In this document: positions 37,664-64,000 of the stretch, in pieces
Position numbering within the stretch: position 1 is the first letter of the stretch
How the letters are laid out: each line of letters opens with the position of its first letter
Source of the DNA: Styela clava
Lineage: Eukaryota
NCBI RefSeq assembly: GCF_964204865.1
Contig: NC_135261.1
Coordinates: forward strand, 5,518,001 to 5,582,000
Direction: 5' to 3'
Length of the DNA: 64,000 nt
Notes under the pieces: generated by a model
The model's input: only the letters and a program-made list of their open reading frames with translations
Databases searched by the model: none
What the model was told of the DNA's origin: nothing
Position numbers and translations under genes: made by a program

Positions 37664-38389
37664 ATGGATAATAGTGATGAAAAGTCAACAAACTCAAGGA
37701 AGAAAGACAAAGACTCGCTTTTGCATTTTAAAGTTTCGAGATTCATCATTGAGTCGTCAGCAAAGTTGAAACTGAATTCAGTAACTTTGGCAAGTGCTTG
37801 TGTTTTATATCACAGATTTTACCAAGAATGCGAAATAGAAGATTATGATCCCTACACGATCGCTGCAACTGCTATATTTCTTGCAACAAAAATAGAAGAA
37901 CAACACACCCGACTTCGTGATGTTGTCAACGTTTGTCATCGAACTCTATTCCCGAGTAAACCCTTGTTAGAAATTGGACGGGAACTATATGATTTGAAAG
38001 ACACAATTGCTAATTGTGAGCTATTGATATTACGAGTTTTAGAATTTAAAGTCACTTGCGATCACCCACATAAATATATCTTACATTATTTAATGTCACT
38101 CTCTCAATTTTTCAATAGAAGAGAATGGGAGAGACATACCGTTGCACAAACTGCTTGGGCAATACTTCAGGACTGTTATCATGGGACTATCTGCTTATCG
38201 CATAGGCCACAACTCGTTGCTATTAGTTGTATTTATTTAGCGCTACTAACATGTAAAGTTGAAGTTCCGTTGAAACATTCATGTAAAACTCCATGGTGGA
38301 AAGTGTTTCATTCAACAGTTTCGAAACATGAAATATCGACTGTGATGGATGAAATAGTAGACTTGTATAATTTGGAAAAACAGTGTTGA
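37664..38389 (+). CDS. CCNQ: Cyclin-Q (FAM58A/cyclin M, CDK10 partner), single-exon CDS, 241 aa
   Basis: HFKVSRFIIES..KL..VTLASACVLYHRF, YDPY.IAATAIFLATKIEEQHTRLRDVVNV, ELLILRVLEF, HPHKYILHYL, AWAILQDCYHG, PWWKVF match cyclin Q. Splice acceptor TTTACAG 23 nt upstream of the ATG. Confidence 0.93.
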   Translation: MDNSDEKSTNSRKKDKDSLLHFKVSRFIIESSAKLKLNSVTLASACVLYHRFYQECEIEDYDPYTIAATAIFLATKIEEQHTRLRDVVNVCHRTLFPSKPLLEIGRELYDLKDTIANCELLILRVLEFKVTCDHPHKYILHYLMSLSQFFNRREWERHTVAQTAWAILQDCYHGTICLSHRPQLVAISCIYLALLTCKVEVPLKHSCKTPWWKVFHSTVSKHEISTVMDEIVDLYNLEKQC

Positions 38390-40106: not shown

Positions 40107-42204
40107 ATGCCGAAGTGCGTGATAGCAAGTGTTTTAGTCGGAATTGCATTGGTACTGGGTGGTGTCGTTCTTCTTGTTGGTAAATACCCGGAAAAAATTA
40201 TCGATTCGGAAATCAACAAACAATTAGCAATTTCGCTGAATTCACCAGAATTTGATGACTGGATGACCCCGCCCCCACCTATCTACATGCAGTATTGGAT
40301 GTTCAATGTAACGAATCCGGATGCCGTAATTGCAGGACAAAGAGCAAATTTGACACAAATTGGACCTTTTACATATCGATTGTACCAGCCGAGATATAAC
40401 GTCGCTCTATACACGAATAACACTGTCTCCTATCAGTACAATCACACCCTTGTGTTTGTCAAAAATATGTCATGTGCCGACCCCCATAATGTCACAATTA
40501 CGAATCTAAACGTGCCATTACTCACTATTGCTGGAATGCTGAAGAACATGCATATACCTGCTTTTATTTCTAAAAAAATAATAGAAATATTCAAAGACAG
40601 CAAGGTATTTCCGCAACACACAGCCTATGAATTGCTCTTTGGTTACAATGATTCACTGTTAAGCTTCGCCCATATGTTTATTCCTTCATTTCCGGCAAAG
40701 TTTGGACTTTTTTACGGTTTCAATAACACAGACGATGGAGTATATCTTGTGAACAGTGGAAGGAAAGACATATCTCTCGTAAATAAAATGGAAAAGTGGA
40801 ATTTCAAATCCGAATTAGATTATTGGTCCGATAAATATGGCAACATGTTAAACGGTACCGATGGTGTCTTTTTTCATCCTGACATGAAGATAACAGAAAC
40901 GATCTATGCTTATTCAACAGATATTTGTCGTTCTTTACCGTTTAAATATGAAATGAACACAGATGTTCGAAGTATCTCAACATATCGTTATCATACAACT
41001 GCAATGGCATTTGCAAATTCCACTGTTAACCCTGACAATGGAGCGTTTTGCGTTCCGGCTGGAAATTGCATGGGGTCTGGAGTCTTAAATATCAGCGTAT
41101 GTAAGGATAATGCACCAGTCGTTATTTCCTCTCCTCATTTTTACTTGGGTGATCCTAAATATGTTAACGGAGTTATTGGACTTAAACCGAATAAGACTTA
41201 TCATGAAACCTACTTGGATATTGAACCTACTACTGGCACTGTATTAAGAGCAAATAAAAGATTACAGGTATGCTGAATTATGCAATGATTAAGTATACTA
41301 ACGCTTGTTGTGCTGCAGTGCTAATAATTGCGACATTGTCGCTGTATTGACGGGTAAACACTGAACTTTGCCAGTGACGTCAATGATACTGGTTAATTAA
41401 TTGCATTTAGCAAATAGCAGTTTTGATTACTGTTCTGGCATTCTGAAATGATTTGAGTCAGATACGATTGAAAGTAGTTATGATACTACCCAGGTTTCAA
41501 AATTTCCACAAATCACTACCCTATATTGATATACCCTATATTTCGCCTACTTTACATCAAGTTGTGTTCAGGGACTGAAACTTATGAGCAGGGTTTATAT
41601 TCATTTGGCTAACACAGACACTCCCCGAACTCGTAATAAAATTTTGGCCTAACCCTAACCTGCTACACACACCTTGGAGGTACCAAAAAATTTTGAACGC
41701 ATGAGCCATTTGAAAAACAACTGTTTTCGACTTATAGTTGACAAAAATTTGGCTGCCATCTCCTGACCCCAGGTTAATTTTGAAAATATTGATTTGTACA
41801 TATTGACGGTCACGGCCCGTGACCCACAGAAAAACGCTCCATGGGGCCCACAAGAGGGCAGAGGCCTTAGTTTGAGAAGCACTACACCATTTCTCAAGAC
41901 ATTTTTTTCTCTACAGCTCAACATCCAACTTGAAGCTTCAGAATACTCGGATGATCTAAAGAACGTTAGAACAACAACATTTCCGTTTGTGTGGCTGAAC
42001 GAAAGTGTCACAGTTGATGTGGATTCCGCAAATCATCTAAAACAAGTCCTTATGGTGAAGCAAGTCGTGTTATCCACCCCTTATATTCTGTTTGGCATCA
42101 GCGCTCTTATTTTTGTGATTATAATAATCGTAACAATTCACAAAAATAAAAAGAAAGGAACCCCACTTCTCACTAATGTTGATTATGATGAAGATGAGAA
42201 TTAA
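40107..42204 (+). CDS. SCARB2: CD36-family scavenger receptor class B (SCARB2/LIMP-2-like), 2 exons, 482 aa
   Basis: Exons 40107-41267 and 41917-42204 (phase 0). N- and C-terminal TM helices; motifs W..PPPPIYMQYWMFNVTNP, GPFTYR, LLFGY.D, MLNGTDG..F.P, DICRS, SSPHFYLGD, YLDIEPTTG, KRLQ|LN, FPFVWLNE; many N-glycosylation sequons. SCARB2 versus SCARB1/CD36 orthology cannot be resolved by eye. Confidence 0.88.
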
Positions 42205-44885
42205 TTTAATTTGTTAATGTTTCTTTATTTACTCTAATTTGTATAATTATTTTCTGCTTTTTCTCCATTTTGACCCTTACTTTAATAACTAGCTGTTTGC
42301 ATATGGATAGTGTGTCATTAACGAAAAAAAATTTTTCTCTAATTTTAAACATGTACATGTATTATACTCTTGAAACTGGCCCAGTTGTTCCGAATCTTTT
42401 CTATATATTCCTCTCTTCAAGCCTATTTTTGTGCTTTTTTGTTTCCGTTATTTGATCAATCTTTAAAGCAGTTCCCAAACTTTTATTGCAGGGTGGCCCC
42501 AGGTTGCGCGGGCCACAAAATTATTTTTGCATTGTTCGCGGGCCACAATAGTGCCAAGATTTTTGATTACTCTTCGAATGTGACGCGGGCCACAGATAAT
42601 GAAGCGGCGGGCCACATGTGGCCCGCGGGCCTGGGTTTGGACCACCTTGTTTTATTGCTATATGATCTTCTCTTTGTCTATTTTATATCTCTATATTCCT
42701 CCCTCTCTACACATCGTTTGTTCGATATTTAAAGGATTCTCGCTATTGTTATGTGTAATCACACTCTAGATTTGGCACAGTTTGTATAGTTTATAAAATT
42801 ATAACATGTCATTGCATATGTATTACAATTCACAATAATTCTGACCAAACAATATTAGTAAATATACACGGAATGCAGCGTAATGTATCTGTATTTTCTC
42901 CTCAATTACGATATTACCAGAGGACGAATTCCCGGTTTAAAAATGCTGCTATATAGGTAATGGCCAATTTCTTGTTAACCAAGACATATTGGATTTAATA
43001 CTTCTTTGTGCGTTATGTTAAATATCAATCCCCACGCAGAATTTTGTTTCATAAAGAAGCTGTCCTGCCAGTACAAAATTTGTCAAAGCGAAGTTTTGAA
43101 GCCTTAATTTTTTTTTCGGGGGGGGGGGGGGGGGCATTCTGTTCTGCTGCTCTCCTTGCTACTGGAATATAACAAATTCATTGAGGATATATCCAAAAAA
43201 TTGTATCATTTCTTTTCATGAACTGCTTTACATCGGCTCATTCATTAACCTACCTAATTTTCTGAAAAATAACATATGTTTATTAGTTAAATTTAACTGA
43301 TTTTTTGACTGCTTCCTTCTGCTTTGGTGCTGAAAAAAGAAATTTTCAGTCCGGCATTTGGCATCTCAGTAAAATTCTAATAAGAAATAAAAATTCTAAC
43401 GGCATTGACCACGCTGAAGAATGTGTTGTAGGTTATTTTTGCTTGCGAGTAATCATGATTTTTCCGGCGTATCAAACGGATTTGACTCACATGATGTGTC
43501 GGTGCCCTCAGGCATGCACTTGCAACGAAATCCAGACTGGGTAACACTACAGGCCATGTTTTGAAGACGTGTTCCATTATTAGCTCATGCTTGGTTGTGT
43601 CGATGTTTTCGTACCATGTTTGTTATTGGCAAGCCTGCAATAAATCTTTGCAACTCACTGTTTTTCTGTAATAGTAATGAAAAGCTGTTTGGTATGATTT
43701 TTTTGTTTTTGATTTGTTTTTTAGTTATTTAGCTTCATTGATTATTCCTCTTTCTGGGTTTTTTGTCCTATATATGCAATAAAGAAGTTTTCTTTTTCAT
43801 TTGTTAAGAGCATAAGTTTTGGTATATCACTCAGCTACTTTTAAGTCGGACCATTTCTGATATAAACCCCATTGTTTTTTCTGATTCATTTCTTTTTTTT
43901 TGCTTTTGCAGTTTTTCATGATGTAGTTATTGAGAAAATTTATGACTTCATCGTATTATACTGTTTGTAGCTTGTATATTTAAAAAGTGAAAAATATATT
44001 TTATGTTCGTTGTTTCACTGCGGACTGGCGAACTAAATAATATATAGGGTGTCCAAGTCCATTTACAATTTTGTTACGAAGTCAGTTCTCAATATATCTC
44101 AACCAGGTTTGTTGTTTTTAATCAGTATTTGTTTAAGTATTTTTACTTCATTTCAATTGGGCCAAAACAATATACGGTATAGATAAATTCCCTTCGCAAT
44201 TTCAAAATATTTTAAGATTTCATGGACAACCTATTTTCTCAGAATTATATCAGTGTGAGCAATAGATGTCTATGTTGAGCAAATGTGTTACCAAATCTCT
44301 GCAGACCTAGCCAATCTACACAGATCACTGGGGATAAGTTCTTGGTCACGGACCACAAAAAATTATCAGATAAACAAAATTTTCACTAATCCCAAATTTC
44401 GAATCTGGTTCACGATGTAGAGATGTCAAGAATAATTTATATGTTTGGAACTAGGGCTTGGCATTCCGAATCGAATATTCAAATTGAATAGTAAATTAGT
44501 TGAATCGGTTAAGAGCAAAATTTCGAATCTATGCCGTTTTGTTTTTTTCTGCCATTGGTATTCGATACGATTCTGCATTTACCAGGTATTCGAAAATGCC
44601 CAGACCTAGTTTGAACACATTGGACATTGTGCAATTTCCATGACAGTTTAGACTAAAATGTTCCATTATATGCTTTTACTATGAAAATGGCTCATCTGTA
44701 TTTTATTGATTGATAAATTGTTTTTGTTGAAAATATGAAAAAAAAATGGAAAGGTTTTGTTTTGTGAATTTGTTATGTGATCAAAGAAATCAGAATTTCA
44801 TGCTGAACGTATATAATTGAACAAGACAGCAATGCTCAATTCCAGAGGCGCTAAGGTTGCACATTGGTACTAGCTAAAGTGACTG

Positions 44886-45105
44886 AGGGGTTGTTAGCAT
44901 AGAAGTCATATTGGGGGTGTCACAATAGGGCTGACGAAATGCGGTTGTTGTGTGTCGAAATGGGAGTGACGAAATAGGGTCGTCGAGTCAAGTTAGGGGT
45001 AGCGAATTACGGTCGGTGCGTGTAAGATTGGGGGTGACAAAATACGGTCGTTGCGTGGTGTCAGGTTAGGGGTGACGAAATACGGTCGAGACGTGTCAGA
45101 ATGTA
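44886..45105 (+). repeat. Left terminal array of ~33-bp repeats (GGGGTGACGAAATACGGTCGTTGCGTGTCAG..)
   Basis: About five tandem units; reverse complement of 62540-62702 and 62925-63058. Confidence 0.85.
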
Positions 45106-45851
45106 GATGGTAAAATATGACAGAACGTGTCAAATTACCGTTAATCTGACAGTAGGGTGCCGGTACGCAATCAGTGACAGCGAGCTGGATGAAATCAAGG
45201 ATCACTAAAATTTGAAAATGAAATTCGCCGAGTATTTATATGTTTATTGTAGCTATTGAGCCTCTGTTAATTACTATCAACCTAAATAAAGATGCGAGGG
45301 TATACCGGTATAGTGACGCCTGGAAATATAGAATTGAATAGAAATTATTTATGAAATCGGCGATGACAAACCTTGAAAATATATTGGAAGTTATGATTCC
45401 TGAAATGGTGCATACACCTGGTGTTTTATTGCATGAATGAGGAAACGATCACGGACCAAATTTTCGGAAAAGAGCACGCCGTATTGTAAAAACAGTCAAC
45501 TCTCAAAGGAACATTCTTCTCTCGGAACTTCGCGCCCTAGATGTAACATTCAATGAAATTCAAAAAGTAAAAAACGGAGGCACAGTTCGGCAACGTATGA
45601 AATACATCTGCATATGTATTATCTTGTAGTACAACGTTGCCTGAAATACGTTTGTGTTCGTCGGGAGCTTTAAAACAATATATGAAAAACGAATAACAGA
45701 ATATTTTACAGTTGAATTTGTTTCAAAAAAATTTCCATGTCCTCAAATAGTGTCAAACAATTCTTTTCCTATTTCTAATATTTTATGTGACCTATTTATG
45801 CATAGAAATGACATGAAAAAACATGTTTTATGTCATCGTGCAAAGTGATTA

Positions 45852-45965
45852 TGATTTAATTTAAATTTGACGTACGACTGGGATCACTCTGCATAGAGAG
45901 ACTAAAATTAACGAAATCTCTCTATGCAGAGGGATCGAGTCGTATGCCAAATTTAAATTAAATCA
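45852..45965. repeat. Hairpin, ~49-bp stem with ~16-nt loop
   Basis: TGATTTAATTTAAATTTGACGTACGACT..CTCTGCATAGAGAGA versus TCTCTCTATGCAGAG..AGTCGTATGCCAAATTTAAATTAAATCA. Confidence 0.85.
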
Positions 45966-48900
45966 AAATCAGCTAATTAAATTTAACTTAACATTGTAAA
46001 TAATTCTTTAAAGTTTTTTTCATTTTTTCGATTATTAATTTGAATAACATTTTTAATGTGAAGGTATGTTTGATCAATGACATTAAACAACATGATGCGC
46101 AACTCCGGCATTTTTGGCCGAAGATCGTATCTGATAGCACGCTCCAATGCACATACTTGACGAGACGAAAACGAGCGGATGTGTGCTGCTTTCAAGGCAT
46201 AGCACAAATGGTGTTCGTGCCTGCTTTGACAGTTGTTGTCGATTTTAATGATATTTTGGAAAGTTGAGGTGAAAAGAAATTGAAAAAAGGTAAGGTAAAT
46301 ACTATTGTTGTATATCACACCCGGGCATCGCACTGTTAAGTACATGTGGGAAAGCCAGCTTTTGTCAAATACTACAAAGTTATTAATTCAGTACGGTACG
46401 TAGTTGCCCATTTGCCGAAATTGCATATTTACTCACCCCTTATGGTTTCAAATTGTTCATGCACCTCCATTTAGATTTTTTTTTAATCAGTGAGGATATA
46501 TACTCATTGCTGTAACATACTATTGCTCATTCACTTTTATTTGCGTATCGAATCAAAGGGTTAACAAGTTCACCTAACATTCACTCATACCGGACGATAT
46601 TGTATAGTCTGATCTCTCAAGTATTTGGAGCCACGAATGCTTGTAATTTTCTGACTAAACCCTTTTATTAGTTGGTTTATATACCAAATTCAGTAAAACA
46701 TTTTTTACATAAAACATGAGATATTGGATTCATTAGCTTTTCCATTCTAAATCATATAGACTGCTTTATTTATTCTTAACGAAAATTAATAAATCTCCTC
46801 TCTTTCTTCAGATGTAAAAGTTGTGGACGAACCTGTCTAAGCATTGTGAGACTCCTGCAGCACAAGAAGCAATAGCAAAAATACTAAGTATATCAATCAA
46901 GAAATTAAGCCGACATAAAGCAAAACTTTCAACTATTCGTCTAACCTCAATTTCCTATTATTTATTCACAGGACAACTGTAGCAGAGGGGAGATATCAGA
47001 AGTCTGGCGACATATCATTGACAGTGTGATTCCAAGAAATATAATCAGAGTACTCCATAAATGTTTGCAATAGAAGAACAACCTATGGAGTCATGCAAAG
47101 ACATCTGACCCTCCGGCAGAGTTGTGGATGGCCCCCATATCCTGCAGGGCTTGAGGAAAATAACTAAAAATTCCAAAGCGTAAGATTCCATAAACGGTCT
47201 TATTTGTAAAATGGCACAAAACACGCCAGACATACTTAAACAGCTTTGGAAAATGAGGATTACGGGTCACTCACTACACCTGTGTTATATTTGGTTCATC
47301 AACTTTTGGTAGTACTATAGAAGAAATTCAGGAAAGGGTATAATCATGATTCACGATAAAATACAAACCTTTTAAAGTAAAATTGATTATTCACACAGAA
47401 AACAATTTACTGAAAGTAGTTTTGGAAAATTATTTTTTTTTGTTCACATTTTGACCCAATAAAGAATATACATCAAGCTAGCAAAAGAATACTTGTATAA
47501 AACACTTGAGTGAATAAATTAAACGCAAGTACATGAAGAAGGTGGCATTTTCGAAGAAAATGGGAGTTGCAATATTTCTGCATTTCACGAAATTCTGAAG
47601 CAAAGAAAAATTCTGTTTAATTTGTCATATTTCCATCAGTACAATGAAAAAACACAATAAGCTCAGCAGTCAATATGACAAATTAGAAGAGCAACTTCGA
47701 ACAGAAAATTTCCATGTGTTTGTATATTAATATAATTATACAACGACTTAGTTACTAAAAATCAATATCAATATTAATTCAAGCAATCCTATGCCACGCA
47801 ATGTGGCGCGAAATGTCTTGTCGAAAAAATCTGTCATTTGTTTTTTTACTGATCTATACATGAAATGATAAAAGTAACTTTTTTTGCATTACTGGAATTA
47901 TTTAAACATTCGCAAAGATCCAGATTAACCCATGATCATGTGACCTCGTGAGTTAGAGTTGGTACTATAAAATCATTTCAGCCTGACCTTAGTATGCTGG
48001 TGACACATAAAAGATGCCAAACGTCAGGACAAATGTAATTAAAAAAACATTGAGTTTATACTGTAGTATTTTTGTCAATTTTAGGTCCATATATTTAGAT
48101 TAAGTGTATGTAATATTCTTTCCTTATCCAAAGCTTGTTTAAAAATTTTGATGGTTGTACATGGAATTTTATGATTTTTTGTAAAAAATACAGTAACTTG
48201 CAATAATAGTGGAATGCAAATATTAATATGTAATTGCATTCGAAATTAAAGAAAATAATAAAAATCCAACTGTTTAGTTGCATCACAATATATGTCACAA
48301 ACTGAAACAATCTTTCAACTATACATTATCAAAAACTGTTTGCGGCCCTTTTTACAATTTTCAAAATGCAATGCAGCTCTCGAAAACCCATGAGTTTGAC
48401 ACCACTGATCTAGACTAGACGAATAAATTTGTCTTCTAAAATCGGAGGAAGGCAAAACATATAGGTAGTTCCCATTCACACAAGTCTTTCAAGAGGACTT
48501 GCTCGAGCCAAACTAAATGAGCATCGTCAGTTGATCGGTAAGGCTGAAAGTTGATTTAGCCCTGCAACCTCCTGCATCGAAAATAATATTAATTAGTGAG
48601 CTATGAGCTAAATTTAGACACAAACCTATCTACGGGGCATTATGTACCAGAAATGTTACCTACGATTAACTGAATATGTAATATGTCTAATAAATTCACC
48701 TACTAAAGCAAGTTCGATAGGTGCAAACTTTGTGTTATGGAATTGTACCACAGCACCGAAAAAGAAGTACAAACAGTTTTGCTGTTTTGTATGACACCCT
48801 CTTTAAATGAAATTTCAATGTTTAAGCGCAAACATTAAAATTACGAACTCTGAACTTTGTCATTATCTGCAAAATGTTCCACACAAATCTTTACGCTATC

Positions 48901-51434
48901 GCGTTTGTAATCTTCTCTGATAAAAAAAAACGTTTATGATGTCCAGAATTACTCTTCGCAGCTTGTCTGCAATTCCAGCTTTCCAAGTGAGCAAAACTTC
49001 TTAGATATAAGGATTATTTTTTTTCGTTACAGGCGCAAATAGGAAGGTACTACACGTAAAGAAAACGCCGAGTAGCAAAAGCGAGCGGAAAACGGTCGCG
49101 AAAGGCGACGAGAAATATGTGCATTGGAGCGTATCATGAAATACAATCTTTCGCCTGTAGCCTTATGGAGTGACGTCAGAGTTGCCTATCATGTTGTTTA
49201 ATGTCATTGGTTTGATATATTATTACGTTTTGCTCTTCAAGTCTTGAACATCTCGAAATAGTAACAGATTTCTCACATTCAAAGTACAGAGTTTATTTGT
49301 TTTGTCAAACAGAAAACAATAACACGACAAAATATAATTGTATAAGCAACAAATTCTCGGTATAGACTGTATAACAACTGGTATCAATACTATCATGTCG
49401 ATATCGAGATCAGTTACCAGTACCACTCAATATTTATAACGTGAATAACAAGAGCTTTAAATGTGATAAGACATCTAGGATGTGATATTGTATGTTTGTC
49501 TGAGACCATCAATAACTTTCAATGGAATAATAATTTAGTTGACAAGCGTTTGGGATGCTCTAAGCATTAACTAAATATACCTAGATATAAATTCAGACAA
49601 ATTATTTGCTTGATCAATTATGATATTAACGAATTTGACATTTTTGATTAATGACTAAAATAGGAAGAGAAGGTTTTCATGTGAGTGTGTGGCATTGGTT
49701 TCTTTAAAATATGTAAATGGTGAATGACTCAAAGTAACGGTTATATAGGGGCATTGAAACGTCACTGCAATAGTCAAGTTGTTCGAGTGTTAAAGTTCGG
49801 ACCAACAAAGCAGGTATAAAAAAGCAATCATATCAAAATTGAGCTTAAATGTTTTCGTATGAATAAGGTCTACAAGCATCATGTAAAATATCAGGAAGAA
49901 TACTCATGTTAGAATGTAATTTACACTGTTTTTTCATTATTTTAGTTTAAGAACCGAATTCTATGAGAATGTCTTTAACTACGTGATAACTTGATGTCGG
50001 ACTCAGACTCGAATCGAAGCTTGGATGATCTCGACTTGATTCGTGGTTTGATAATTACCAAACAGTGAACTGCGCGGTATGGGTGAGATATCATACTGAT
50101 ACTTGGTGAAACGCATGTCTGTGACGTGTGTGCATAGTGACACGAGGGGTAAAGACTGCCAGAGAAATTCCAAGGGTATGTCATTTTTTGCGTCCGGAAA
50201 GAATAATTTCAATAAAAAGTGACTAAGAATCAACAAAATATTAAATGATGTTGGGTTAAAGGACATATAGGGTGTAAGGACATATAGGTTTAAAATTGCA
50301 GAGGGAATTTACCAATGCCATTTAGAGATTTTGTCTTCGCAGATGTATAAAATACTTGAACAATTACTGATTAACAAACAACAAACCAGGTTAAGATATA
50401 TTAAGAACTGACTTCATAACAAAATTGCAATGGACACCCTGTATTGTTTCAATAGTTATGAGAAAAGCAAAAAATATTGTTGCGTTAAAGTGTCATTTTT
50501 GTATTATGTGTACCTACTCAATTACAAACATGAAGTGAAGTTCTGTAGAGTGTAGACCATGTCAACAGACGTCGCGTAAGATCAATTCCGATTATAATTA
50601 CCCAAAAGAATGAAGCTCCGTAAACGTCACTAATGCCCTATTATGACTCCTCGAACATGTTTAGTCGAGACTGGGCTTTTAACAAAACACAAATAGACTA
50701 ACAACAAATAAATAGTTGTCTTGATAAAGTTTCCATGGAATGTGGTTTAATCAGACAATCTTCTCAGTCACATCCCGAATAAATCTACGTTCTTTATTTT
50801 CAGTAGTAAACAACAATCATTGGTCACTGATTAGAGTGAGATAGAGATTACAGTATCTTTGTTTCTTTATTAAAAATGACAGCTTCCTCCCCTTGTGTTT
50901 CTCTTTGATACTGCTCATTTTTTTCTCTTTTGACCTTAAAAAAATATTTGGCGCGCGTGCCGCATTTCGGCTCAGGGCGTGGTAGTGTGAGGTCGTTTCT
51001 GCGCTGGTCTGAGCTAGGTAAATTCACAGTTTAAGGCAGGGAAGGTCGAGATATAACTAGGTCAACTAATTATTCCCATTCTTCATGCATATATAAGCTA
51101 TAACTTGAATTGTATAAATAATAATCTATTCCGATACAATTGGGTAGCGCCTTTTTTCAGCCATATGCAGAATTTGAGTGTTATATGACGAATATAGATT
51201 TCAGCATTGAGTTCTTGTTTCATTTCTTATATACCTTTCGAGTGTATTTATTTACGTGTTTTGCAACGTTTTTCTTTATGCATCAAGTCTTGTTTTATGA
51301 TAATTTTTTTTGTGAGTTGTAATCCGCGACAACGTGCTGTTTATAATTTTTCTACTTTGCACAAGAACTTTGTATCATCGCTAAAAAGTATCATCGCTAA
51401 AAAGTAAGCCATAACTATAATTTTCAAATTTCAG

Positions 51435-52240
51435 GCTTAAAAAAAAAGAAGAAAAATCTACCAATATAATATGATATTGGCATGATTGATGGTGGAGTGA
51501 CGGACTGATTGATGTAGGCAGAAAGGTAACTGATCTAAAGTAGTTTATCAGTTTTATCATAACTTGATTATAAGGTAAAGGCCTTTTAATTTTAATCTAA
51601 TTACAGGGCTTTGCGAAGAAGGAAGATATTGTTACTGCTGGTGGTCGAGTGGCGATTGGTCGATGTAAATGGAAAGGTAAGTAGTTCTAAGAATGTTACA
51701 AAATCCAAAGCTTTTATCACAACTTCATTATAGAGCAAAGGTTTTATAATTTTTACCTTAATTACAGGTTTTTGCGAAGAAGGAAGATATTGTTACTGCT
51801 AGAGGACTAGTGGCGATCGGTCGATGTAAATGGAAAGGTAGGTATGTTACAAAATTTAAGGTTTTTATCACAACTTGATTATAGAGCGAAGGTTTTATAA
51901 TTTCCACTTTAATTACAGGTTTTTCTGACGCTATGAAGATATTGTCGATGTAAATAGAAAGTTAGGTGGTTGGTCTAAACATGTTGCAAAATCTAAGGTT
52001 TTTATCACAACATTTTATAATTCCCAATTCAATTACAGGTAGAAGATATTGTTACTGCTGGTGACAAGGTGGCAATTGACCGATGTAAATGGACAGGTGG
52101 GTCTGCTTCATTTTTTATGAACAATATACTTTACTCAAAAGGAAAAGGCGTATACGTAAAACATAATTTCCTAAATTGTTGGTTCGTGTTGTTTGTACAG
52201 TGTAAACATTCGAATATTGAAAGCGCTTTTTTACAATAAA
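51435..52240 (+). repeat. Tandem exon-intron repeat array (putative spliced ncRNA)
   Basis: Units TTACAG|exon|GTA with exons 51435-51525, 51607-51676, 51768-51837, 51919-51960 and 52039 onward; AATAAA at 52235. Confidence 0.7.
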
Positions 52241-52927
52241 ACTTTCATTTTCGCTTTTCCACGAGTTTTCCTCTTTTTATATGAACAATTGTGATCATAA
52301 TTTGTTCTACATAAACACACGTATGATACCTAATAAGTTCTGATATTGCTGTTATGCTAATGTAGTTGTGTACATCTCTGTTAACTTTTTACATCACAAT
52401 ATTGTTGCGTATTACAATTGTAAAGGTTGGAGAATAATGCTATACTGCTATAATCTTTACGCTACTGACCTAAAACTTGCCTTCCGTCTTAAACCACAAT
52501 ATTCTTACACCAAATGCTTTTATATAGCAGGCATACGAATGCGAAATGAGATTTTGAAGAAACAAGAGAGCAATGCACAATATGGAGACTGAGTCGGAAC
52601 GAAATATTTCACCCGTATATTCTCCAAAAATCATACCTTGGTCTCGAGATAGCTGTAGTTTGTAATTTTTTTTTCGATTTATCTATTCAACTGCGTTTTG
52701 GGTCGTGCCGAACTGACATTAACTGCTAAAGCTGGGCTTTTTTAAATACTTGCTAATTTCATCATTCAGTCAGTTCGCGCCGAGTTGTCACCGACAATGA
52801 GAATCATGTTTTATCAATAACTCAACTAGTCACTGGGAAGAAAATAGTCGCCTGTCCATCCCTAATAACAGCACACTACGTCAAATGGCCACAGATCCAT
52901 CCCACTGCGTGTTGGGTCGTTCTAAAC

Positions 52928-53038
52928 GGCGCTCCCGAAGTATGTGCACCAAGATGGCGCACAACTGATAACCCTAACCTGGTACACATATAATGTTCAG
53001 GTTGTGCGCCATCTTGGTGCACATACTTCGGGAGCACC
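52928..53038. mobile_element. Short palindromic Merlin-like MITE
   Basis: TIR GGCGCTCCCGAAGTATGTGCACCAAGATGGCGCACAAC; degenerate TSD TTCTAAAC/TGCTAAGC. Confidence 0.7.
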
Positions 53039-55012
53039 TGCTAAGCAGGCATTAAATAATAAAGCCGGGAATACCTGATAACTTAATAATCGAATCTTGA
53101 TTACTAGGAAGATATTTAAATTTCCTATTTAAACGTGATTGTATGCAAATTTTTATTTTAATGAGTCCTCAAGGCATATAAATTACCGAGAACATAGAAT
53201 CCATCACTCAGTCAGTTCGCTAAGTCGTCACTCACAAATAAGAATCGTGTGTCATCAATAACTCACTGGGAAGAAAACAGCCGTGTGTCCGTCCCTCATG
53301 ACAGCGTACTTCGTCAAATAGCTACAAATATGTAAGTAGCTGTTATTCTTGTGAAAAAATCTGCATTTAACTTATCATTCAAATTCTGACTGGAAAAGCG
53401 AATCAAGGCGATCTCAAAATTACAAATCTGGATAAAGTAAGTAATTGTTCCATTTCTTCTTATAAAGGCGTGAAATATAGTAAAAAAAATTATTCAACCA
53501 ATTACTTTATCGATATCTTTAATATCCAACTTCAACTGCAGTTTAGAATTTTAGTATATTCGCCTAGTTATAATTTGTTATCCCCAAATAGTTTTTCAAA
53601 TTGGGTATAAGGGGCACCTTTATCGGCACCATTACATACCTTTTAAGGCAGGGGTTGGCAACCTACAGTAATATAATCCGGCCTGCAAATGGGATAAAAA
53701 TAGGTTTTTTGAGGTGCAATGCAATTAGGAAATAAATCTATATTCTATTCGATAGATGTATCACTGCTTGATTTTTATTATAAAGTATCATCCGTTCGGT
53801 TTTCAACTTTCTGAAAATATGTGCGTCTTGCCAATGACTTGCGACCCCTGTGTCCTTTGTCCCACGAGCGACAAAAGGTTGCCGACCACTGCTTTAAGGT
53901 TATAGAATCAATTTGCGGAGGTATTTCGAATGCTGTAAATTTTCGATGTTATCGAATCGCAAGTGATGCTTTTTAAATTCAATCCCAAGCATATGGGTGT
54001 TTTACTCGTGATTTTAATTGCAGATTATGGAATTGGGGGTAGCAATATAGTCCAGAAGTTATATTTTAATTAAAATCAGGGCGGTTTGTGAATTATTTTT
54101 TCCAACGCTGTTAAACTAGTTTTATATATTTCAGGTTCGAACTGGGCGGAAGCAAAAGACGATTAATCTCACGTGAAGCAGACGTAGATTGACAGTTTTT
54201 TCTGGATATAGTGTTTTAGAATTGTACCAATCGCATTTTCCATTTTATTTTAATAAGTCCTGTATCCGGGTTTTAGAGGTCAGCGCTTCCTTAGCCCCCC
54301 CTTTCCAGATCGTGGGTCATGATGGGTATTGATTGGTTAGGGACACTGAGATTTCTTGCTGCCATCTAATAACCAATTATGCTCGTAGACTGCTATCATA
54401 GATATAAACGCGAGATTTATTCGAATCTTGAAAGTTAGTAAGGTTCCTGTACTTTCACACAAATTCCGTCGTTCTGTGTCTAGAATCTTCAGTGTTTGTT
54501 GAAGTTTTATTCCTTTTTGTTATTTAATGGATATAAATAAATATAACCGACGAGAAAATATCTCCATGCTTGCTCTGAGGCTGGGATTGGTTTGTCAGGT
54601 TTCGGATAGTTGTTCGGGATAAACTAGCAATCATCAGAATGTACAAAAGGGGGTGTGCATCATGCGTATGACGTCACTAGGTTGTGACGTCACCCTAGCG
54701 ATCAGCGGTATTTTGGGGCAGGCCGGCGGTGGATCCGAGCCGAAACGACGCGATTTAATTTTATGTGCGGCCGACCATTGGCCGTAGATAAATCGAGTAT
54801 ATTTTCCGAAATTTATCCATAATCATGCCTGATCATGCATGATCCGAATATAAATTTCAAAAATCTCCATTTTCCAAGGTCTGACCCTTCGATTTTCTCC
54901 ATTTTCGTTTATTTAGGGATTTCTATCTTCTTATAAGTCGGAGCTTCCTTCATACTTTATATATCTGCGTAATCCAATTAATGACGACACGAAATTGATA
55001 CGGGACAGTAAG

Positions 55013-55084
55013 TTCGCGGGATTCAAACTTTGGTCACCATGAACAAACTAAAGGAATATCAACCGCCTTTACCAACTAGGCCAA
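55013..55084 (-). other. tRNA-like Pol III head, mirror copy
   Basis: First 21 nt identical to 55212-55232, and AAAGTTTGAATCCCGCGAA is shared. Confidence 0.55.
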
Positions 55085-55211
55085 GGAGGGACGTGAGAGC
55101 GAGATCTGAGTTTTAATATTTATCAATTATCATAAATGAGTTTATAATTTACAAGTCCGTTGAGATGATATATAAATATTAGACCTTAAAGCTTTGTTCG
55201 TAAGTTCTTAA

Positions 55212-55283
55212 TTGGCCTAGTTGGTAAAGGCGCTGGGTAGACCATAAATTTGTTCACGGTGACTAAAGTTTGAATCCCGCGAA
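55212..55283 (+). other. tRNA-like Pol III head (A box TGGCCTAGTTGG, B-box-like AGTTTGAATCCC)
   Basis: TTGGCCTAGTTGGTAAAGGCG resembles the D arm of Ser/Leu tRNAs. Acceptor and anticodon stems are poor, so this is not called a tRNA gene. Confidence 0.55.
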
Positions 55284-56997
55284 TGTAACATCAAAAATTA
55301 ACGAAGGAGAAACTCGAGCTGTGGACTACAAAAACCCCAAAATAAGAGAATATGGAGGAAATCGAAGGGTCAGACCTTAGAAAATAGAAAATTTTGAAAT
55401 TTTCATTCGGATCATGTATGATCAAGCATGGGCGCGTAAAAATTTCAGTAATTGTACTCGATTTATCTATGGCCTACGATCGGCCAAAGATAAAAAAAAT
55501 CGCGTCGTTTCGGCCCGTAACCGGCGCCCCATAAAATCGCGGCTAGCCAGTATGACGTCATAACCTTGTGACGACTTAGTGTAAAATCCGCAGAAACCAG
55601 TCAAAATGACGTTTTGAGACACTTCTTACACCTATGCTCCAACTCCCATTTCCTATTAGCCTTTAACAAAACCCAGTCGCCGACAACCAATAAGCATGGA
55701 GAACGAATATTGCTTCAATAATTTTATTATTCTTCAAGCAAGAGAATAAACAAAAATGTACATCTAGTCTTCGGGGAAAAATAAGAGAGAGGTGGATAAA
55801 ATGAAGATATTAATGGGAACGCATTGTTTAAAAGGAATATGGAATATTAGCTCACCTATATTACCAAAACTCTCTAAACGGAATAACTTGTGAACTGGTA
55901 ATGAACTATTGGATTTTAAGACTTCGCCCTACAATGACAAATGCGCATTAATTAACACTTTTCAAGTACACAATACTGCTAATTAAATGAAACAACATCC
56001 AGACTTCACAGCTATAAAAGACTATAAAACAATATTATCAAATATTCTAGCTGAAACAATGCGCAATTATAAAAATACCTAATTTGAACAGACAGATGAT
56101 TTGTGAGATCCGTTGTCGCCTCAATCCGCTTGTTCCGGAATCCGGACAGAATCTGCATGAAAAAATAAAGTTAGATATCGGTCTTCAATAGGAATAGTTG
56201 CCGATCGTAAAGAGCAGCGGCGATCGCGCACAAGGGCGGCGTAGACAATTTTTTATATTGCGTTGAGCTTATTTAAAATAACAATTTTTGGATATATGAA
56301 TCCTGACCCCTACCTGATGACGTCATCCAAAAATTACGTCACTGCGACGTCACAATAACGAAATACAGCTTGCCAAAGTATAGCGACGGTCACCCGTAAT
56401 GGCGCCTACGAATATGTCAACAAACTCAATACGTCAGCGACAAATTCTAAAGAGGGGCGCGGCTTAAAATGTTTGAGAACCACTGCTATAGAGTTTCGTT
56501 TGAAGAATATTATATGCTTGGGTAACAATAACTATCGATTTGCAATTCAATTTCTCTAATCCATCTTGTGGATTAGTCATGAAATAAAAACTGGGGTTCT
56601 CAGTCTATAGGATAAAATTAGCGCCGGGGGGTGAACCGGGTAAATTAGCAATCAAGGAATTTTAACGTCAAAAAAAATTTGATTCAACCCACCAAAAAAA
56701 GCAAAACGAGTAGCGAGAGGAAGCAGCGCTGGCAAACAACTTATTCTGACAATCGTATATATATATTTGAGTTTTATACGCGCTATCATCAAGTATTTAT
56801 TTGGTAATAAAATCTGTCACCGCGGGCATTTCCGAGCTTTCTCTCACTACAGAGGTAGACCGTGTTTGTTGGTTACAAACTAGCGTATTATATAAAGTGT
56901 ATTATATACAGCCATAACCATATGCCCGGATATGACTCTGTTATTGCAACACAGGAAATAATAATGACACATCAAAACACATAAGCATACTAGCATG

Positions 56998-57172
56998 AAG
57001 GGACAAAGGGACATTAAACCTACTATATAAGAGGGACACTGCTAAGGGACATGTCCCTTTGTCCCTTACTATATACAAGGTTATAAATGTCCCTTTGTCC
57101 CTTACTGTATACAAGGTTATAAATGTCCCTTACTGTATACAAGGTTATAAATGTCCCTTTGTCCCTTACTAT
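56998..57172. repeat. Minisatellite ATGTCCCTTTGTCCCTTACTRTATACAAGGTTATAA x~4 with an upstream inverted half-unit
   Basis: Direct units at 57051-57172; AAGGGACAAAGGGACAT at 56998 is the reverse complement of the unit start. Confidence 0.85.
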
Positions 57173-57789
57173 ATAGGGTTTTTCAGCCGGCTTTAGGGCC
57201 GCCACTTACCTCTTGAACGATTCGTCTGAAGTTATTAACTAAAAACCCAACCACCCTTCCATAGTCATAACAGTCCTAGTGAAGGGACAATTGCAGATTT
57301 CTACATTTAGTGCATTCTGCACCTTGAAGTTCTTGTAGAAAGCTTATAAAATTGGGAAAAAATAGGACTGAAATAGAAAATAAAGTAACTGAATTTTGTC
57401 ACGAGACTGTTCACAAACGATAATACTCAAAATGAAGTACGCATTTGACTAAGAATGTGCTGGTAACTGATTAGCACTATAAATATTTTTCCTTATTTTA
57501 TTGTTTCAGAGAAGGAAACTTCTATAGGTGGATAGTATATACTTTAAAATTTATTTATTTAGCGTTATTGTACGTGGTATTAAAGCCTACAAGTACCTAA
57601 CCTTAAAAGCTGAAGAGCGAGTTGTGCGCAACTGCCTGATAAACCTGAAGAAAACTGAAACCAGAGTTGTTTACGCATAACAAGGAGAAATAGGCAAAGG
57701 GAGGAAGTATTTGATGATTGTGGACCTCAAGCTGAAGCACGCGCGCATCTCCGGCAGGGTTTCAACACGATGACGAATAAGTCATGGGA

Positions 57790-58045
57790 ATCTTTAAATA
57801 CTCCGATGTAGGTTTGAATTATGTGGGGTTAAATTATGTGGAAGAGGATCGTTGGACTCCTGGTTTCTCTCTTGGACTCTTGGAGGTGATTCACGTACAA
57901 CTGTTTCGTAATACCTCCGCCATTAAGCTCATGCATCCAAGACTAAGCCCGATAGGCGATATGGACTGATCACCGGACGAGAAGCCGTGGTGTCCACGTA
58001 ATCAAGCCGTCTGACGGATTTCCTCTCCACTGTGATAAATATGGA
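57790..58045 (+). mobile_element. Degenerate SINE-like repeat
   Basis: B-box-like GTAGGTTTGAAT and a 3' block ACCGGACGAGAAGCCGTGG...AAGCCGTC shared with ~25595-25660 and ~8150-8255. Confidence 0.4.
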
Positions 58046-61000
58046 AAGACAAAAATATCTACACTTACTTCAACAAACTCTCGATTCGTGAAATTCGCTT
58101 TCACCTTATTCGCTTATTCTCGTTTTCAGGACATAAACTGCATGATAAAATACAAGTTAAAACTATGGAATCCGAAATATTCCAGTCCAATTAAAAACGC
58201 CTTTATGATTTCAGCAAAAGCGAAATGACCTCCACCAATGTTATTTTGCATTCATTTTTATTTCACTCTCAACACATAGATGTCTATGCCGGTACAGATA
58301 GAATGTTTAGGCTTGGAATAAATGATTAATTAATTAATTAATTTCAGTGTGAATTGAATTCAATTTATGAAACACGGCCACTTGCAACGAGTAAGAGTAA
58401 TTTTAGAGCAGTGTTCCAACCTTTATCGTTAAAACTTCTCTTCGCCTTTTTTGGAACTTTTATTTTTTGACTTGGTGGATCATGCGCACTCACACTTTTG
58501 TACAATTTAAGTGTGTTATAATTATCCATTATAGTAATATCAATAATGAAGAAATGCAGAATAGAAATAATAATAAAGAAATGCAGAGTCTATGATTAAA
58601 AAGTTAACCTACCTTGATTATGTTGAGACACGCCGGAGAAGCCACACGCCGGAGAAGCCGTACCTTGCTCCACATGTTTTCCACAAACATTGGATACTTT
58701 CAAGCACTGATTGACAATTTCTGTAGCAAAATAAAACCACTGTAGAAAACACTGTACGTTGAAAATTTTTGAAGGTAATTTAGATTTTCTTTAATTAAAT
58801 TGTTTAATCCATACTTGTTTTTGTCTCAGACGCAGCGGAAATACTGCATTAATTTCATAAACAGTTTTCAGCTTTCATTAAATACATTTAGGACTGATTG
58901 CACACTACGATTTCGGTAACACAGACATCGGATTCTGATTATGCTCGTAAGTATTATTAAAAAAAATGAATTTTGAAGTTTATTTTAAAAATAAATCATG
59001 ATTCGAATTGCAAAAAAATATAATTACTTACATATTTATTTTTATTTGAGACGAATCGGAAAGTCACTCCTCTTGCTTCCCAAATGAAAACGTTTCCTTT
59101 TTCGTTTGAAGAAATTTAATCACCTATTTAAAATTTCTGAAATATAACAAAAAGAAGATACTAACAAGGAAATGAACATGAACAAAAAACAACATAATAG
59201 CATAACGACATGTACAGTTCGCGTCCAATAGTATTGAAACCAACAACAAGTAATTACCCCGTCTCTATCAGTTGACTGTTGATAAAAACTCACTTGTACT
59301 TACCATGTCCAGCTATGTCCGAAGATTCGTCTCCTATCCACTTTTATCTGCACGTGAAAACGAAAATTGGAAGGGTAGGCCAGTAGTGGAAAACTACGCA
59401 ATTTTAATTGCTACACGAGACAAAAAATAGGACCTGGCATACTTCTTCTTCTTACAAAGGGTGAATTACTTATTGCTTAAGACAGATTTTCATCTTACTT
59501 ATTTTATTGCCTTCATTAACAAAAACACTCGCAATGGTTGACGGAAATCTTACAAGGGTATTGGTTTTACAAAATACGAAAGTTACAAAGAATGAAACGA
59601 CTTTAACCCAGACTGCAGATGCGCCGTCATCAATATCAATTTAATACTTCATACCTAACTGGATAAATGTTCATTCAACCGCATTTCCTCCAGCAGATCC
59701 CGATGCCAACAATTCCAGAATTTGTGATCCAATTCCACCCCAGATCAATAATTTTAGGCCTAATATTAGTCTAACTGCATTAGTAAACATAAACTGTAAA
59801 AACATATAAATTGCCTGCAAAGAAACGAGAAAAGCTGTAAATGAAGCCAAATCATTTATTAATTTCCGTTAGAATAAATGAATTTGTCAAACAGCCGAAA
59901 CGACGAATAATTGAAAGACTATTCAAAATTGGAAGACTATTCAAAATGTAAATCTGAATGCACAATGCAATAAATATACGTTTCTCAGCGCAAGAGCCCA
60001 GTAGTATAAAACCTCCATATGTAATCGGATTCATGTTAAGAGTAATATAAGAAGCCAATACAATGACACTGACGGAATCTTTAACACTTGGTTTGACCAA
60101 GATCGTATACTATATTGCCATACGGTTGTGCACTTATAAATAAATTAACAGTTACCTTATTAATCCTTGATCGCCTCTCTTCAACTAAACTTCTGTGAGT
60201 CTTCGAGTCAGGAATTTGGCAACAATAATCGCTTTAATACTATGTTATGGCCTAACTGTATTATTATTTAGTTTATCTTTAGCTATTAGTCCATGTATCT
60301 TTCGTTTTCATTCCACCTCGACAGTCCCACTTGGTAGACAATTGAATTGTAACAAATTTTCAATTGTTACTTTTCAAAAATTATCGAATATGCAGAATTA
60401 ATTTTTGATTGTATACTTTAACCTTCAAGGGAACACAGGTATTTTTCCACCTGCATAAAATAATGATTTCATATTCTTAAAACAATGAGATCATCGATAT
60501 TCCCACGAAATCTATGCTATTCCAATTTATTTTGCTATATATTTACACTACATTTGACCTTAATTACTGCGCCGATGCTATAAACCGGAAATATTAATAT
60601 TGCTCAACCAAAATTTCTCCTATCAAAAACGAAACAAACTAGTTTCTGATTGGTTAAAAATAAACCTTTCCGAAAAAGTAATGAATAAAGATAGAAAATT
60701 TATCCACGAAACGGCAAAATTCCAAAAGCCTTCAAATAACCCAACTTAACCCAAAATAGCACAGACAGAAAAGAGAAAAAAAGTGGGAAAGGTAGGAAAT
60801 ATAGGGGGCAACCCCCGCAACTATCCCATTCAAGGATTCCCAATAGAACACATATACCTTCTGATTAATATATATATATATGCTTTATATCGGAATACAG
60901 ATTATAGAAGTCTAATATATAACTAAAGTCGTAAGTAGTCGACGGGACTATCGGATAAGTATGCAGATAGAAGACCATTCATAGCAGCAACACAACTTTC

Positions 61001-62479
61001 TACGTTACAGAATCAACAATTGTAGATTAAACATAGGTTTAACTGCATTCATATAACGAAAAGATATGGAAGAAGAGAACGCTACTTGTGCCCACGTAAA
61101 TTCTTGACATGACAAAAAAGATTTGGATATAAACTACAAAAAAACCGTTGAAATAATTTGAAAAATATTGAGCAAATAATATTACCTGTACTATATCCAT
61201 CCCAACACAACCGCATCTCTGTTGAGTTTTTAATTCATCAATGATGTAGATCTTATTTATGAAATGGTCCAAGCATCATTGCACAGCCATATCTTACCAG
61301 GGGTCTTTGATTCAACACAAGTATACTCTCAATTCAAACTAGTGTTATATTATGGCCTAACTGCAATCCATAATTCATTGAATATATGTTTAACCGTAGT
61401 TTTTGTTCCGCTCAAGCAGTTTCCGATGTCAACATTCGCATCTTGTTTACGTTCAGTCAGTTTGCATAAACAAGATCTGAAATATGTAACATGGCTAAGA
61501 TGCACTATATTGGTTGAATAAAAGCTAACACAAGCTAAGAGCAGAAATAGGGCAATTCGTATATATGGAATATATCCAAAGCGTAAATATGAATACGGTT
61601 TTAGGTTTCTTACTTGTTCTAACTTGAACATTTCATTGTTCTCGTTCGCCTCCATTTGTTTACGCCGTCGTCTTTGATTCAATATCTACACACTAGGAAT
61701 CATTTAGTATTACGCTATGGGCTAACTAACTGAAAGAATGAAATTATCTCTAATAATCATTGCCGATTTAGATTATCTCACCAATTTCAGATCTCAATTC
61801 CACTTTGTAGACATTTGAATCAATAATTGTAGGCCAAAGCTTAGTTTAACTACATTAGTACAACTATGAAAAATGGCTGAAGATACGCGTTGGATTATGA
61901 AAAAAATACCGACACAAGTATGCACATAAACCATTAAACCGAAAAAATTCGCAAACATGAAATCAGTGCTCACCTGACGGCGTCAACTTTGAAAAGACCG
62001 CCTGAGCGCAAACAAATTTTGACGTGGCAAGAAAAAAGTTTGATTATAATAAAGAAACAAAGAGGGTGGAGGAGACCGCAAAATGAAGATGCTTTTTCAT
62101 TCGTTATTAGGAATCACATGTCTAGGTGACGTAAGAAAATAGCAAAACAACAAAAAAATGATGGAACATGCTGTTTGTCGCATTAACCTTTTACCACTAC
62201 AGCCATATAACAATCTAAATACATCTTATTCTAGAGTCTAGCTAGACAATATTTAATATGCTACATTATTGAGAAAAATAATAATAAGCAGAAAGATATT
62301 CTACCGACGTCATGATGAGGACAGCAGGAAAAATCACGCTGACCAAACATACAGCGATAATAACAAAATCAGACGATTTTTCTTCATAGGATGCTTATTC
62401 AATACTTGTCGCATCGAACAAGACCCTATGCAAGCATCCACAGATACCCCACGATATGCTATGAGTTACTCTCAAAACG

Positions 62480-63058
62480 TTTAAAACGTGCTGCTACTAT
62501 TCTGACATGCCGAAATCAAATATTTAAAGTTTCTTCGCAGCGACCGTATTTCGTCACCCCTAACCTGACACCACGCAACGACCGTATTTCGTCACCCCAA
62601 ATCTGACATGCACCGACCGTGTTTCGCCACCCCTAACTTGACTCGACGACCCTATTTCGTCACTCCCATTTTGACACACAACGACCGCATTTCGTTACCC
62701 CTATACTTGCTTTAAATGTATTAGACGTCCAATATCGCTGTATTAAAAAATAAAAAGATAATTGTGCTAAATTAAGTTTAAATACTGAACTACCCTTGAC
62801 TATGATACATTTATATTTTTCATAAAATTACCGGAATATACGCTATGTTTGGTATTATATATGTCCGGTTCAAAACGTGCTGCTACTATTCTGACATGCC
62901 GAAATCAAATCTTTGGTTTTTTCGCAGCGACCGTATTTCGTCACCTCCAATCTGACACGCATCAACCGTATACCGTCACCCCCAATTTGATACGCAACGA
63001 CCGCATTTCGTCATCCCTATTTTGACACCCTCAATATGACTTTTGTGCTACCACCCCT
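62480..63058 (-). repeat. Right terminal array (two tandem blocks), inverted relative to 44886-45105
   Basis: CGACCGTATTTCGTCACCCCTAACCTGACACCACGCAACGACCGTATTT is the exact reverse complement of the left array. Ends CAATATGACTTTTGTGCTACCACCCCT. Confidence 0.85.
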
Positions 63059-64000
63059 GTAGCTTATTTCCAGCAGCCTGGTTGTACAGCGGGCGCTCCA
63101 GAAGTGTGTGTACCAATATGAAGGTAACTAATTTGTCTACTTTACATCAAGTTGTGTAAACATGTGGGTTATTCACTTGGCTAACACAGACAGACCCCGA
63201 ACTCATAATAGAATTAAAAAGGGAAATCGGTATAAAATTATGGCTTAACCTTTATTATTGCATTGGATTTATTGTTGCAGTAACCAACCTTGTGAATGTT
63301 TGCCTTTCACATTCAATAGATAAGGTTTTGTATGAAAGGTTTGCTAGCTTCAGGTGCACAATGCTTATAATATGTCCCATGTGTGAAAGTGCTCTGTAAA
63401 ATTGATATTTATCATGGCCAAGTATGAATGTGTATATTATTTTTATTGAGTTATTAATGATTAAAATGAAGCATTTTGTCAGTCTGACATAGCCCAAGAT
63501 TATTTACTTTTGATATTCCGAACTTTTGCATGAAACATACCGTAAGTTTATTTCGACTCCATAATCAGCATAATAGACGATAAAATAATTGATACAAAGT
63601 AAATAAAACTGATTAGAGATAAAAATCTCCTCATAGTGTAGTATGGGTAAGAATAAGAAGGTCTAAAACATACAGATTTCGGACTATGTTACGTTTACAT
63701 ATGTGACTACTGTGCAACAATTGAATTAATAAAGATAATTTTATCACAGTACTGAATAACAATTCCCACTAAATGGACAAGATTCGTTCTGATCCGTTAC
63801 CAAGTCTCCAAACCATTAATAAACTAGTCCTAGCTGTTCTAAACGTTGCGCACAAAGCTCATTTTGTGTCTCCAATCAAGTCTCCACAATTATATATTTT
63901 TGCTTCCATTCTAGCCATAATCAAATTATTTCCAAACCATAAACACTACTATGATATACCCACTGTAATACTCTGTACAAAAACAAATAATTGATTGATT

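Follow-up and report, generated by a model that had tools for sequence, protein, structure and literature searches.

The stretch analysed here, referred to as the window, comprises 64,000 nucleotides of the Styela clava genome (contig C16, positions 5518001-5582000; genome size 377 Mb). In its right part lies a segment bounded by inverted arrays of short tandem repeats, which an earlier note, made from the sequence alone, had described as a giant element of about 18 kb with terminal inverted repeats (TIRs). Analysis of this segment and of related loci suggests, with a probability of roughly 0.7, that it is a copy of a decayed multi-copy foldback family, in which a short TIR unit and a captured piece of an older repeat were moved together as a block of about 20-24 kb by a transposase acting in trans, likely that of a Mutator-like element (MULE).

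The arrays are located at 44926-45099, 62536-62709 and 62923-63028. The repeat period is 35 bp (units of 33-38 bp) rather than the proposed 33 bp or so, and the right array consists of two blocks; arrays at both ends and their terminal motif were found as the note had described them. The arrays are indeed inverted copies facing inward: the arms 44925-45088 and 62541-62704 are 164 nt long, 93% complementary and the longest among 238 inverted pairs in the window. Since an exact 20-mer of the repeat had 53 matches in the genome and a reversed control had none, the repeat is not a product of chance. The termini of the window copy, at 44883-5 on the left and at 63062 on the right, are asymmetric. 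Its left TIR is about 430 bp shorter than the full left TIR of about 650 bp seen in the copy at 19.0 Mb of contig C2 (C2:19.0 Mb), an outer repeat block and an AT-rich spacer having been deleted between repeats, and about 5 kb found in longer copies is deleted just inside the right TIR. In the family the TIRs are 480-650 bp long, and each has either one block of 35-bp repeats or two, varying between ends and copies. Long TIRs with variable internal tandem repeats, the structural mark of foldback elements, are thus present.

Table 1. Features of the window copy (positions are those of the window; MITE, miniature inverted-repeat transposable element; TSD, target-site duplication).
Feature	Position	Strand	Remarks
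Left TIR	44883..45099	+	family terminus GAGAGGGGTTGG, here CTGAGGGG; 35-bp array 44926-45099
Module A of short foldback unit	45100..46074	+	aligned in 23-24 of 67 fetched loci
Nested non-autonomous element	46075..49209		ends CAATGACATT...AATGTCATTG; 7-bp TSD
Module B of short foldback unit	49210..49978	+	B2 = 49414-49978
Arm/passenger junction	49976..49978	+	TAA microhomology; common to 10 loci on 7 contigs
Passenger, module C	49979..62474	+	12.5-kb piece of an older dispersed repeat
Small exon-like chain	51290..52640	+	GT..AG edges; inside passenger
Palindromic MITE, high-copy	52924..53038		in passenger; depth about 200 per strand, loose ends
MITE with CAGGGG/CAGTGG ends	53649..53893		in passenger
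Central palindrome	54759..55495		part of passenger; also in TIR-less native copies
Minisatellite, 28/36-bp	57051..57175		in a stretch unique to the window copy; 0 of 67 loci at 57001
Right TIR	62479..63062	-	two 35-bp blocks around AT-rich spacer; terminus CTACAGGGGTGG read inward

DNA searches, in which the best 40 candidates were scored per search, located the left end at at least 57 places (best 40 of 156 candidates) and interior pieces at at least 50 and at least 92 places in the genome. On other contigs both ends and the interior are found again in unchanged order, at about 80-93% identity and with unrelated flanks. Of the 15,038 non-nested bases of the window copy, 12,087 are covered by the copy at C2:19.0 Mb and 14,595 by all fetched loci combined, with a median coverage of 0 in the flanks. 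The left terminus GAGAGGGGTTGG was matched at 9 distinct ends and the right terminus CTACAGGGGTGG, read inward, at 22; the family termini begin with GAGA and CTAC, respectively (ends GAGAGGGG/CTACAGGGG). Six copies possess both ends. Three of them are flanked by a perfect 8-bp TSD (TCACCAAA, CTTTTTTT and GTTCCGGG), one by an imperfect TSD matching at 6 of 8 positions and differing by two C/T changes, and two, including the window copy, by none. The perfect TSD TCACCAAA encloses the one long composite with a TSD, which now measures 47.9 kb; this long copy, at C2:19.0 Mb, retains its two termini and has lost the inner TIR. The absence of a clean TSD, noted before, therefore holds for the window copy but not for the family. 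Because the ends were found as inward-facing pairs round colinear, multi-copy homologous interiors, and not as dispersed solo ends beside a single-copy interior, the earlier description as a non-autonomous cargo-carrying foldback-like element stands.

The family is old and looks inactive, and the window copy is decayed. Solo and truncated ends are common, and true segmental duplicates of family copies exist (C2:20.21/20.24 Mb and C14:3.39/3.83 Mb). Loci L206, L222, L224, L210 and L215 carry solo right termini, about 38-150 bp long, on whose inner side unrelated DNA lies; two of them are near host-like open reading frames (ORFs), and footprints of deletions or rearrangements are a possible explanation. 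At C17:10.095-10.109 Mb (L232, L233) four copies of a diverged TIR relative (70-76%) sit within an 11.3-kb tandem duplication (99.4%), and no transposase was found within 50 kb of them. At C14:11.04-11.05 Mb (L037) several kb of an array of about 60-bp tandem repeats, open in multiple frames, adjoin a family copy.

Module maps of the fetched loci revealed a composite structure. The short foldback unit, with the order left TIR-A-B-R-right TIR, has a length of about 6-7 kb and is also found alone. The passenger in turn occurs at other loci that lack TIR, A and B, where its identity is mostly 65-90%; these native copies reach at least 2 kb further to the left and about 2 kb further to the right. 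Since they extend past both junctions, the passenger was cut from an older repeat. The central palindrome, which exists as noted, belongs to it, and its inverted repeats are seen in native passenger copies on contig C19. Among the fetched loci the arm/passenger junction was counted 10 times and the B2/R junction 16 times. On its right side the passenger meets a second left TIR directly (3 loci) or a second B2 via the microhomology TTACCA (5 loci); B2 thus reappears as a direct repeat beyond the passenger in longer copies. The full order B-passenger-TIR-A-B-R-TIR is kept at C8:18.05-18.08 Mb and C6:4.51-4.58 Mb. Summed module lengths amount to about 24 kb for this two-unit form and about 20 kb for the B2-repeat form. 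From the window copy, everything between the passenger end and the right TIR is missing, the whole inner unit included.

In a tree of 23 passenger copies, from which redundant sub-loci were left out, the window copy groups with 10 others in a starred clade without internal resolution (100/99; end branches of 0.022-0.044), which is nested among older copies, and unit modules are present in 9 of the 11 copies of this young clade. The arm/passenger junction shared by 10 loci and the star-like clade argue for one capture followed by amplification. Captured DNA with microhomology at the breakpoints (TAA, TTACCA) at 10 loci on 7 contigs is the pattern of a multicopy Pack-TIR; the pattern of a macrotransposon is present as well, with the two-unit order at C6 and C8 and an outer TSD at C2, no one copy having both. 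We are confident that the window element is a composite rather than one giant primary element: bounded by TIRs and repeated in the genome, as the note had proposed, but assembled from a short unit and a captured older repeat. The idea that B2 is a long terminal repeat was discarded, since native copies of the passenger run on beyond either junction, and a Helitron was rejected for the short unit because of the TSDs. One native passenger copy (L083-L084; C3:13.453 and 13.466 Mb) lies between 354-bp inverted repeats (97%) built from its own right-hand sequence.

The inverted pair at 46075/49209 exists, but belongs to a separate, later insertion and not to the element itself. This nested element of 3.1 kb has CAATG/CATTG ends and a 7-bp TSD (GTTTGAT, at 46068-46074 and 49210-49216); another copy elsewhere has its own 7-bp TSD, and at 21 other loci the A/B junction is empty. 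Its raw-read depth is 46-221 per strand compared with 0-8 in bins free of high-copy inserts. Judging from ends and TSD we take it to be P-like, and a further insert may be present inside it at 47364-48422. The MITE with CAGGGG/CAGTGG ends is presumably of the hAT type.

The hAT, piggyBac and Gypsy ORFs observed in some family copies are copy-specific nested inserts. At C6:4.545-4.575 Mb (L039, L103, L104, L065) about 28 kb of hAT-like transposase fragments are arranged head-to-tail in a family copy; at least four other copies or their flanks also carry the same element, with DUF4371 in a sister copy. A tandemly repeated insert of about 2.3 kb with a 326-336-aa frame (P0001) was seen at L030:8530-9507, L069:2357-3364 and L023:1331-2341. 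The frame represents a local insert in two family copies and is absent from the window copy and others. It had no Pfam match; Atlas leads with scores <0.9 pointed toward RPA/POT1-like OB folds, and it is possibly an accessory gene of Helitron type. One protein encoded in an insert of a related copy matches a protein labelled Styela clava at 96% identity. To the left of the element the window contains a CD36-family gene (40065-42201, 2.7 kb from the insertion site; Pfam E 3.5e-126), a cyclin-family open frame (37658-38386) and, at 31110-35152, a DDE_Tnp_4 transposase frame facing a Myb/SANT frame, which we take to be a Harbinger layout.

In agreement with the reported absence of polB, integrase and DDE ORFs, no transposase, polB or Pfam domain was found in the scanned ranges of the window copy: a six-frame Pfam scan of 45100-60360 and 61100-62481 with stops treated as X gave nothing at E<=0.01. 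Rfam matches were also absent. No frame of more than 115 codons is open in the majority of copies, and the master copy that spread was therefore likely already non-coding. The decayed inward-pointing ORFs of the note could not be substantiated. The 165-codon frame in module A contains 3 stops, and its sole match, a repetitive protein, failed in direct comparison, so that it has no credible homologue; the 110-aa frame on the right had no match among longer proteins, which is a weak test. A translated search with the passenger yielded 38 matches, none with a long intact frame.

The micro-exon chain at 51.4-52.6 kb was confirmed and is more than chance. It comprises exon-like units at about 51435-51525, 51607-51676 plus a duplicate, 52040-52096 and 52528 onward. 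Contig joints connect 51502 with 51605 in three of four runs and 52094 with 52526, with GT..AG edges, in two of four; the RNA nature of these runs is a guess, and the joints, which were not visible among those listed for DNA runs, may originate from DNA. The letters at the 51502/51605 joint match the exon variant of three unit-bearing copies (C2:19.0, C5:14.85 and C10:9.25 Mb), which native passenger copies beyond the fetched loci may share. Because no consistent reading frame was found in the 70-nt units, the chain is likely a spliced non-coding or decayed transcript.

Since intermediate forms survive in the genome, the order of events can be read directly from them. In the proposed history a 6-7-kb unit would have come to lie immediately to the right of a passenger copy. 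One template switch guided by the TAA microhomology would then have duplicated the passenger together with the left arm of the unit, so that two left arms came to enclose about 14.5 kb of passenger. The block would then have been spread by a transposase that bound the 35-bp repeats and acted on the right end together with the outermost of the left ends. Subsequent deletion via TTACCA would have removed the inner TIR, with the B2 direct repeat remaining; in the window copy the entire inner unit would have been deleted, and other elements would later have nested inside. That the long block spread by transposition we regard as highly probable, and we lean slightly towards its origin by a single duplication. 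Comparison of the majority sequences of outer and inner B2 gave 3 differing columns out of 329, none of them fixed (the count leaves out one segmental duplicate, and the 'short' group includes one false row, oC19d). This near-identity fits one sequence at birth; two young insertions and a deletion would look alike.

Such a pair of insertions is the most serious alternative. Here two short units would have inserted separately on either side of a passenger, and deletion of the right half of the first would have left a classical macrotransposon. The same module order is predicted, the B2 copies of left type cluster weakly (92/95, branch 0.009), and the frequent solo and truncated ends fit this course of events. 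However, it needs three events instead of two, and none of the 329 columns shows a fixed difference between outer and inner B2; we therefore consider it unlikely. At its first base the inner terminus differs from the family terminus in 3 of 3 copies, as expected for an end out of use, but this change does not separate the two birth models.

As to the mover, a MULE-type transposase acting in trans is probable on comparative grounds, while membership of the family itself is unproven. The TSD of 8 bp falls within the 8-10 bp of Mutator/MULE elements (PMC3169594), and the motifs outside the inverted repeat, GAGAGGGGTTGG and CTACAGGGGTGG, are asymmetric. Both features favour Mutator over Polinton and CMC/EnSpm, and the family works like a Mutator/foldback. 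As no transposase-bearing partner was found, its superfamily is formally left unassigned. CMC/EnSpm elements have CAC(T) termini and a TSD of 2-4 bp, with which the termini and the 8-bp TSD found here do not fit.

The MULE transposase domain (Pfam PF10551) has 82 matches in the genome. Most of the 20 fetched loci lie inside long, often internally repetitive inverted repeats, and two closely examined families have asymmetric ends and TSDs of 9 bp and 8 bp. A MULE ORF lying 13 kb away from a fragment of the family has TIRs of its own. This genome contains several families of MULE foldbacks whose TIRs are long and internally repetitive and whose ends are asymmetric. One has TIRs of 0.9-1.5 kb with 98.6-99.7% identity and 8-bp TSDs and is likely young; another has TIRs of about 450 bp and 9-bp TSDs and likely encodes the FLYWCH+MULE (Phantom-like) protein scanned from L133. 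Loci noted for a MULE foldback family are L134, L135 and L146 (C6:13.66, C14:13.91 and C6:16.56 Mb), L143, L141, L145 and L149. In addition, a 908-codon frame at L094:1778-4501, not among the PF10551 matches, shows similarity to MULE transposases and an OTU-like protease domain (Pfam E 5e-6), and sits in its own tandem-repeat TIRs of about 750 bp.

A P/Galileo-like or hAT transposase as mover, with a mere resemblance to MULE foldbacks, seems quite improbable. Foldback TIRs arose independently in several superfamilies (PMC3169594, PMC3573991), and the right end contains CAGGGG; in most of the 22 right ends, however, three more conserved bases lie outside CAGGGG, which is consequently not a CAG terminus. 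That the hAT, piggyBac and Gypsy ORFs are copy-specific nested inserts also speaks against such a mover. An 8-bp TSD fits hAT and some P elements. Galileo, on the other hand, has a TSD of 7 bp (PMC3573991), and the family has 8 bp. Pfam scans of the window copy, and of the initial 2.4 kb of the right segment deleted from it, gave no match to a P-type transposase, and no genome-wide search for one was made.

That only the short unit transposed, long copies being produced by segmental duplication or ectopic repeat recombination, is less probable still. Such duplicates exist, as mentioned above, and most long copies lack one terminus, but the long copy at C2:19.0 Mb has both termini and its perfect TSD, the flanks are unrelated over 7 contigs, and the passenger clade is star-shaped. 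That the element is a degenerate Polinton or endogenous virus, or is autonomous and represents a new class, which the size of about 18-24 kb, the frames without homologue and the passenger of no recognised class could suggest, is largely refuted and hardly credible: six-frame Pfam scans revealed no domain, including polB, integrase and capsid, no majority-open frame exceeds 115 codons, TIRs and interior have separate histories, and the TSD is 8 bp, while Polintons make 6-bp TSDs.

Several observations weigh against a foldback composite moved by a MULE transposase. The family TIRs recur at none of the 21 MULE loci examined (20 from the 82 Pfam matches and one other), comparison of MULE proteins with the family modules disclosed no remnant (best E 0.021), and the checked MULE families start with GG at both ends, compared with GAGA/CTAC here. 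A TSD surrounds just one long composite, the two-ended copies in the window and at C6:12.59 Mb have none, and most other copies are truncated at one end. No joint spanning the element, which an empty site would give, was among the joints listed in four runs (381 are unlisted). For two members of the young clade (C5:9.89 and C14:11.03 Mb) the fetched stretches contained no TIR. Resolution of the B2 tree is poor, with 2 of 19 branches starred. Finally, ends and class of the passenger were not found, its left and right extremes having no inverted match.

Each ingredient of this system is already known. The family resembles Tm1, a Mutator/Foldback element of root-knot nematodes (PMC3169594), in its TIRs with variable numbers of tandem repeats, asymmetric end motifs outside the inverted repeat, an 8-10-bp TSD, mostly non-autonomous decaying copies and even a nested element with a 7-bp TSD. 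Tm1, in contrast, has 14-bp repeats, mostly 9-bp TSDs, elements of about 1 kb and a copy with a Phantom-type transposase, whereas the family described here has 35-bp repeats, an 8-bp TSD, a unit of 6-7 kb and a composite of 20-24 kb, and a partner was not found. Galileo of the P superfamily (PMC3573991) shares length-variable long TIRs, internal tandem repeats and chimeric copies without TSD; its 7-bp TSD and P-type transposase were not seen in the family. Capture by microhomology followed by transposition to distant sites is also known from multicopy Pack-TIRs (Drosophila Ssk-FB4, FoSTeST model; PMC8277862). In that survey the median capture was 224 bp and multicopy cases in reference genomes numbered four; here about 14.5 kb was captured at at least 10 loci, the source is a dispersed repeat instead of an identified single-copy gene, and a duplicate left arm of the element itself is part of the capture.

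Movement of intervening DNA by the outer ends of two copies has been described for the FB-flanked Ising TE in Drosophila (PMC6431247) and for maize Ac macrotransposons of 10-28 kb with 8-bp footprints (PMC9910405). Those are rearrangements observed in the laboratory, whereas the present family was amplified naturally and genome-wide, with deletion derivatives, and has just three element ends. Three TIRs, with no TSD at the inner one, are likewise found in plant MULEs with an additional solo TIR (PMC3310237). These plant elements of about 1-1.4 kb almost never amplify ('death on birth'), unlike the three-TIR form and its derivatives here, which spread and in which loss of the inner TIR is common. 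No description of the family was among the papers that the literature searches listed, and the passages of PMC7540406 contain 'Mutator' and 'MULE' 0 times; the supplements of that paper or Repbase/Dfam may list the family. The family reveals neither a new transposase nor a new class; unusual are the cargo size, the natural amplification to at least 10 loci and the surviving intermediates. A foldback element is reported to occur in Ciona (Simmen and Bird).

In nature, cut-and-paste elements are believed to move little cargo; their efficiency drops beyond a size of about 6 kb (PMC6431247), and in animals multicopy captures are both rare and of small size (PMC8277862). With its capture of about 14.5 kb at at least 10 loci, the family offers a good test case for template switch followed by transposition versus macrotransposition by two elements. 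The genome also holds several MULE foldback families, some with about 99% TIR identity. A more far-reaching scenario, which we put forward tentatively and regard as doubtful, is that the foldback took up about 14.5 kb of a locus family which is spliced and transcribed, by duplicating its own left arm around this DNA, that the three-ended block spread through the genome and can regenerate the short unit by B2 recombination in a cycle of capture, amplification and release of multi-exon cargo, and that mobilised copies give rise to some of the passenger transcripts. If true, this would be a natural animal macro-Pack element with about 60 times the median reported Pack-TIR capture, its mover belonging to no described family.

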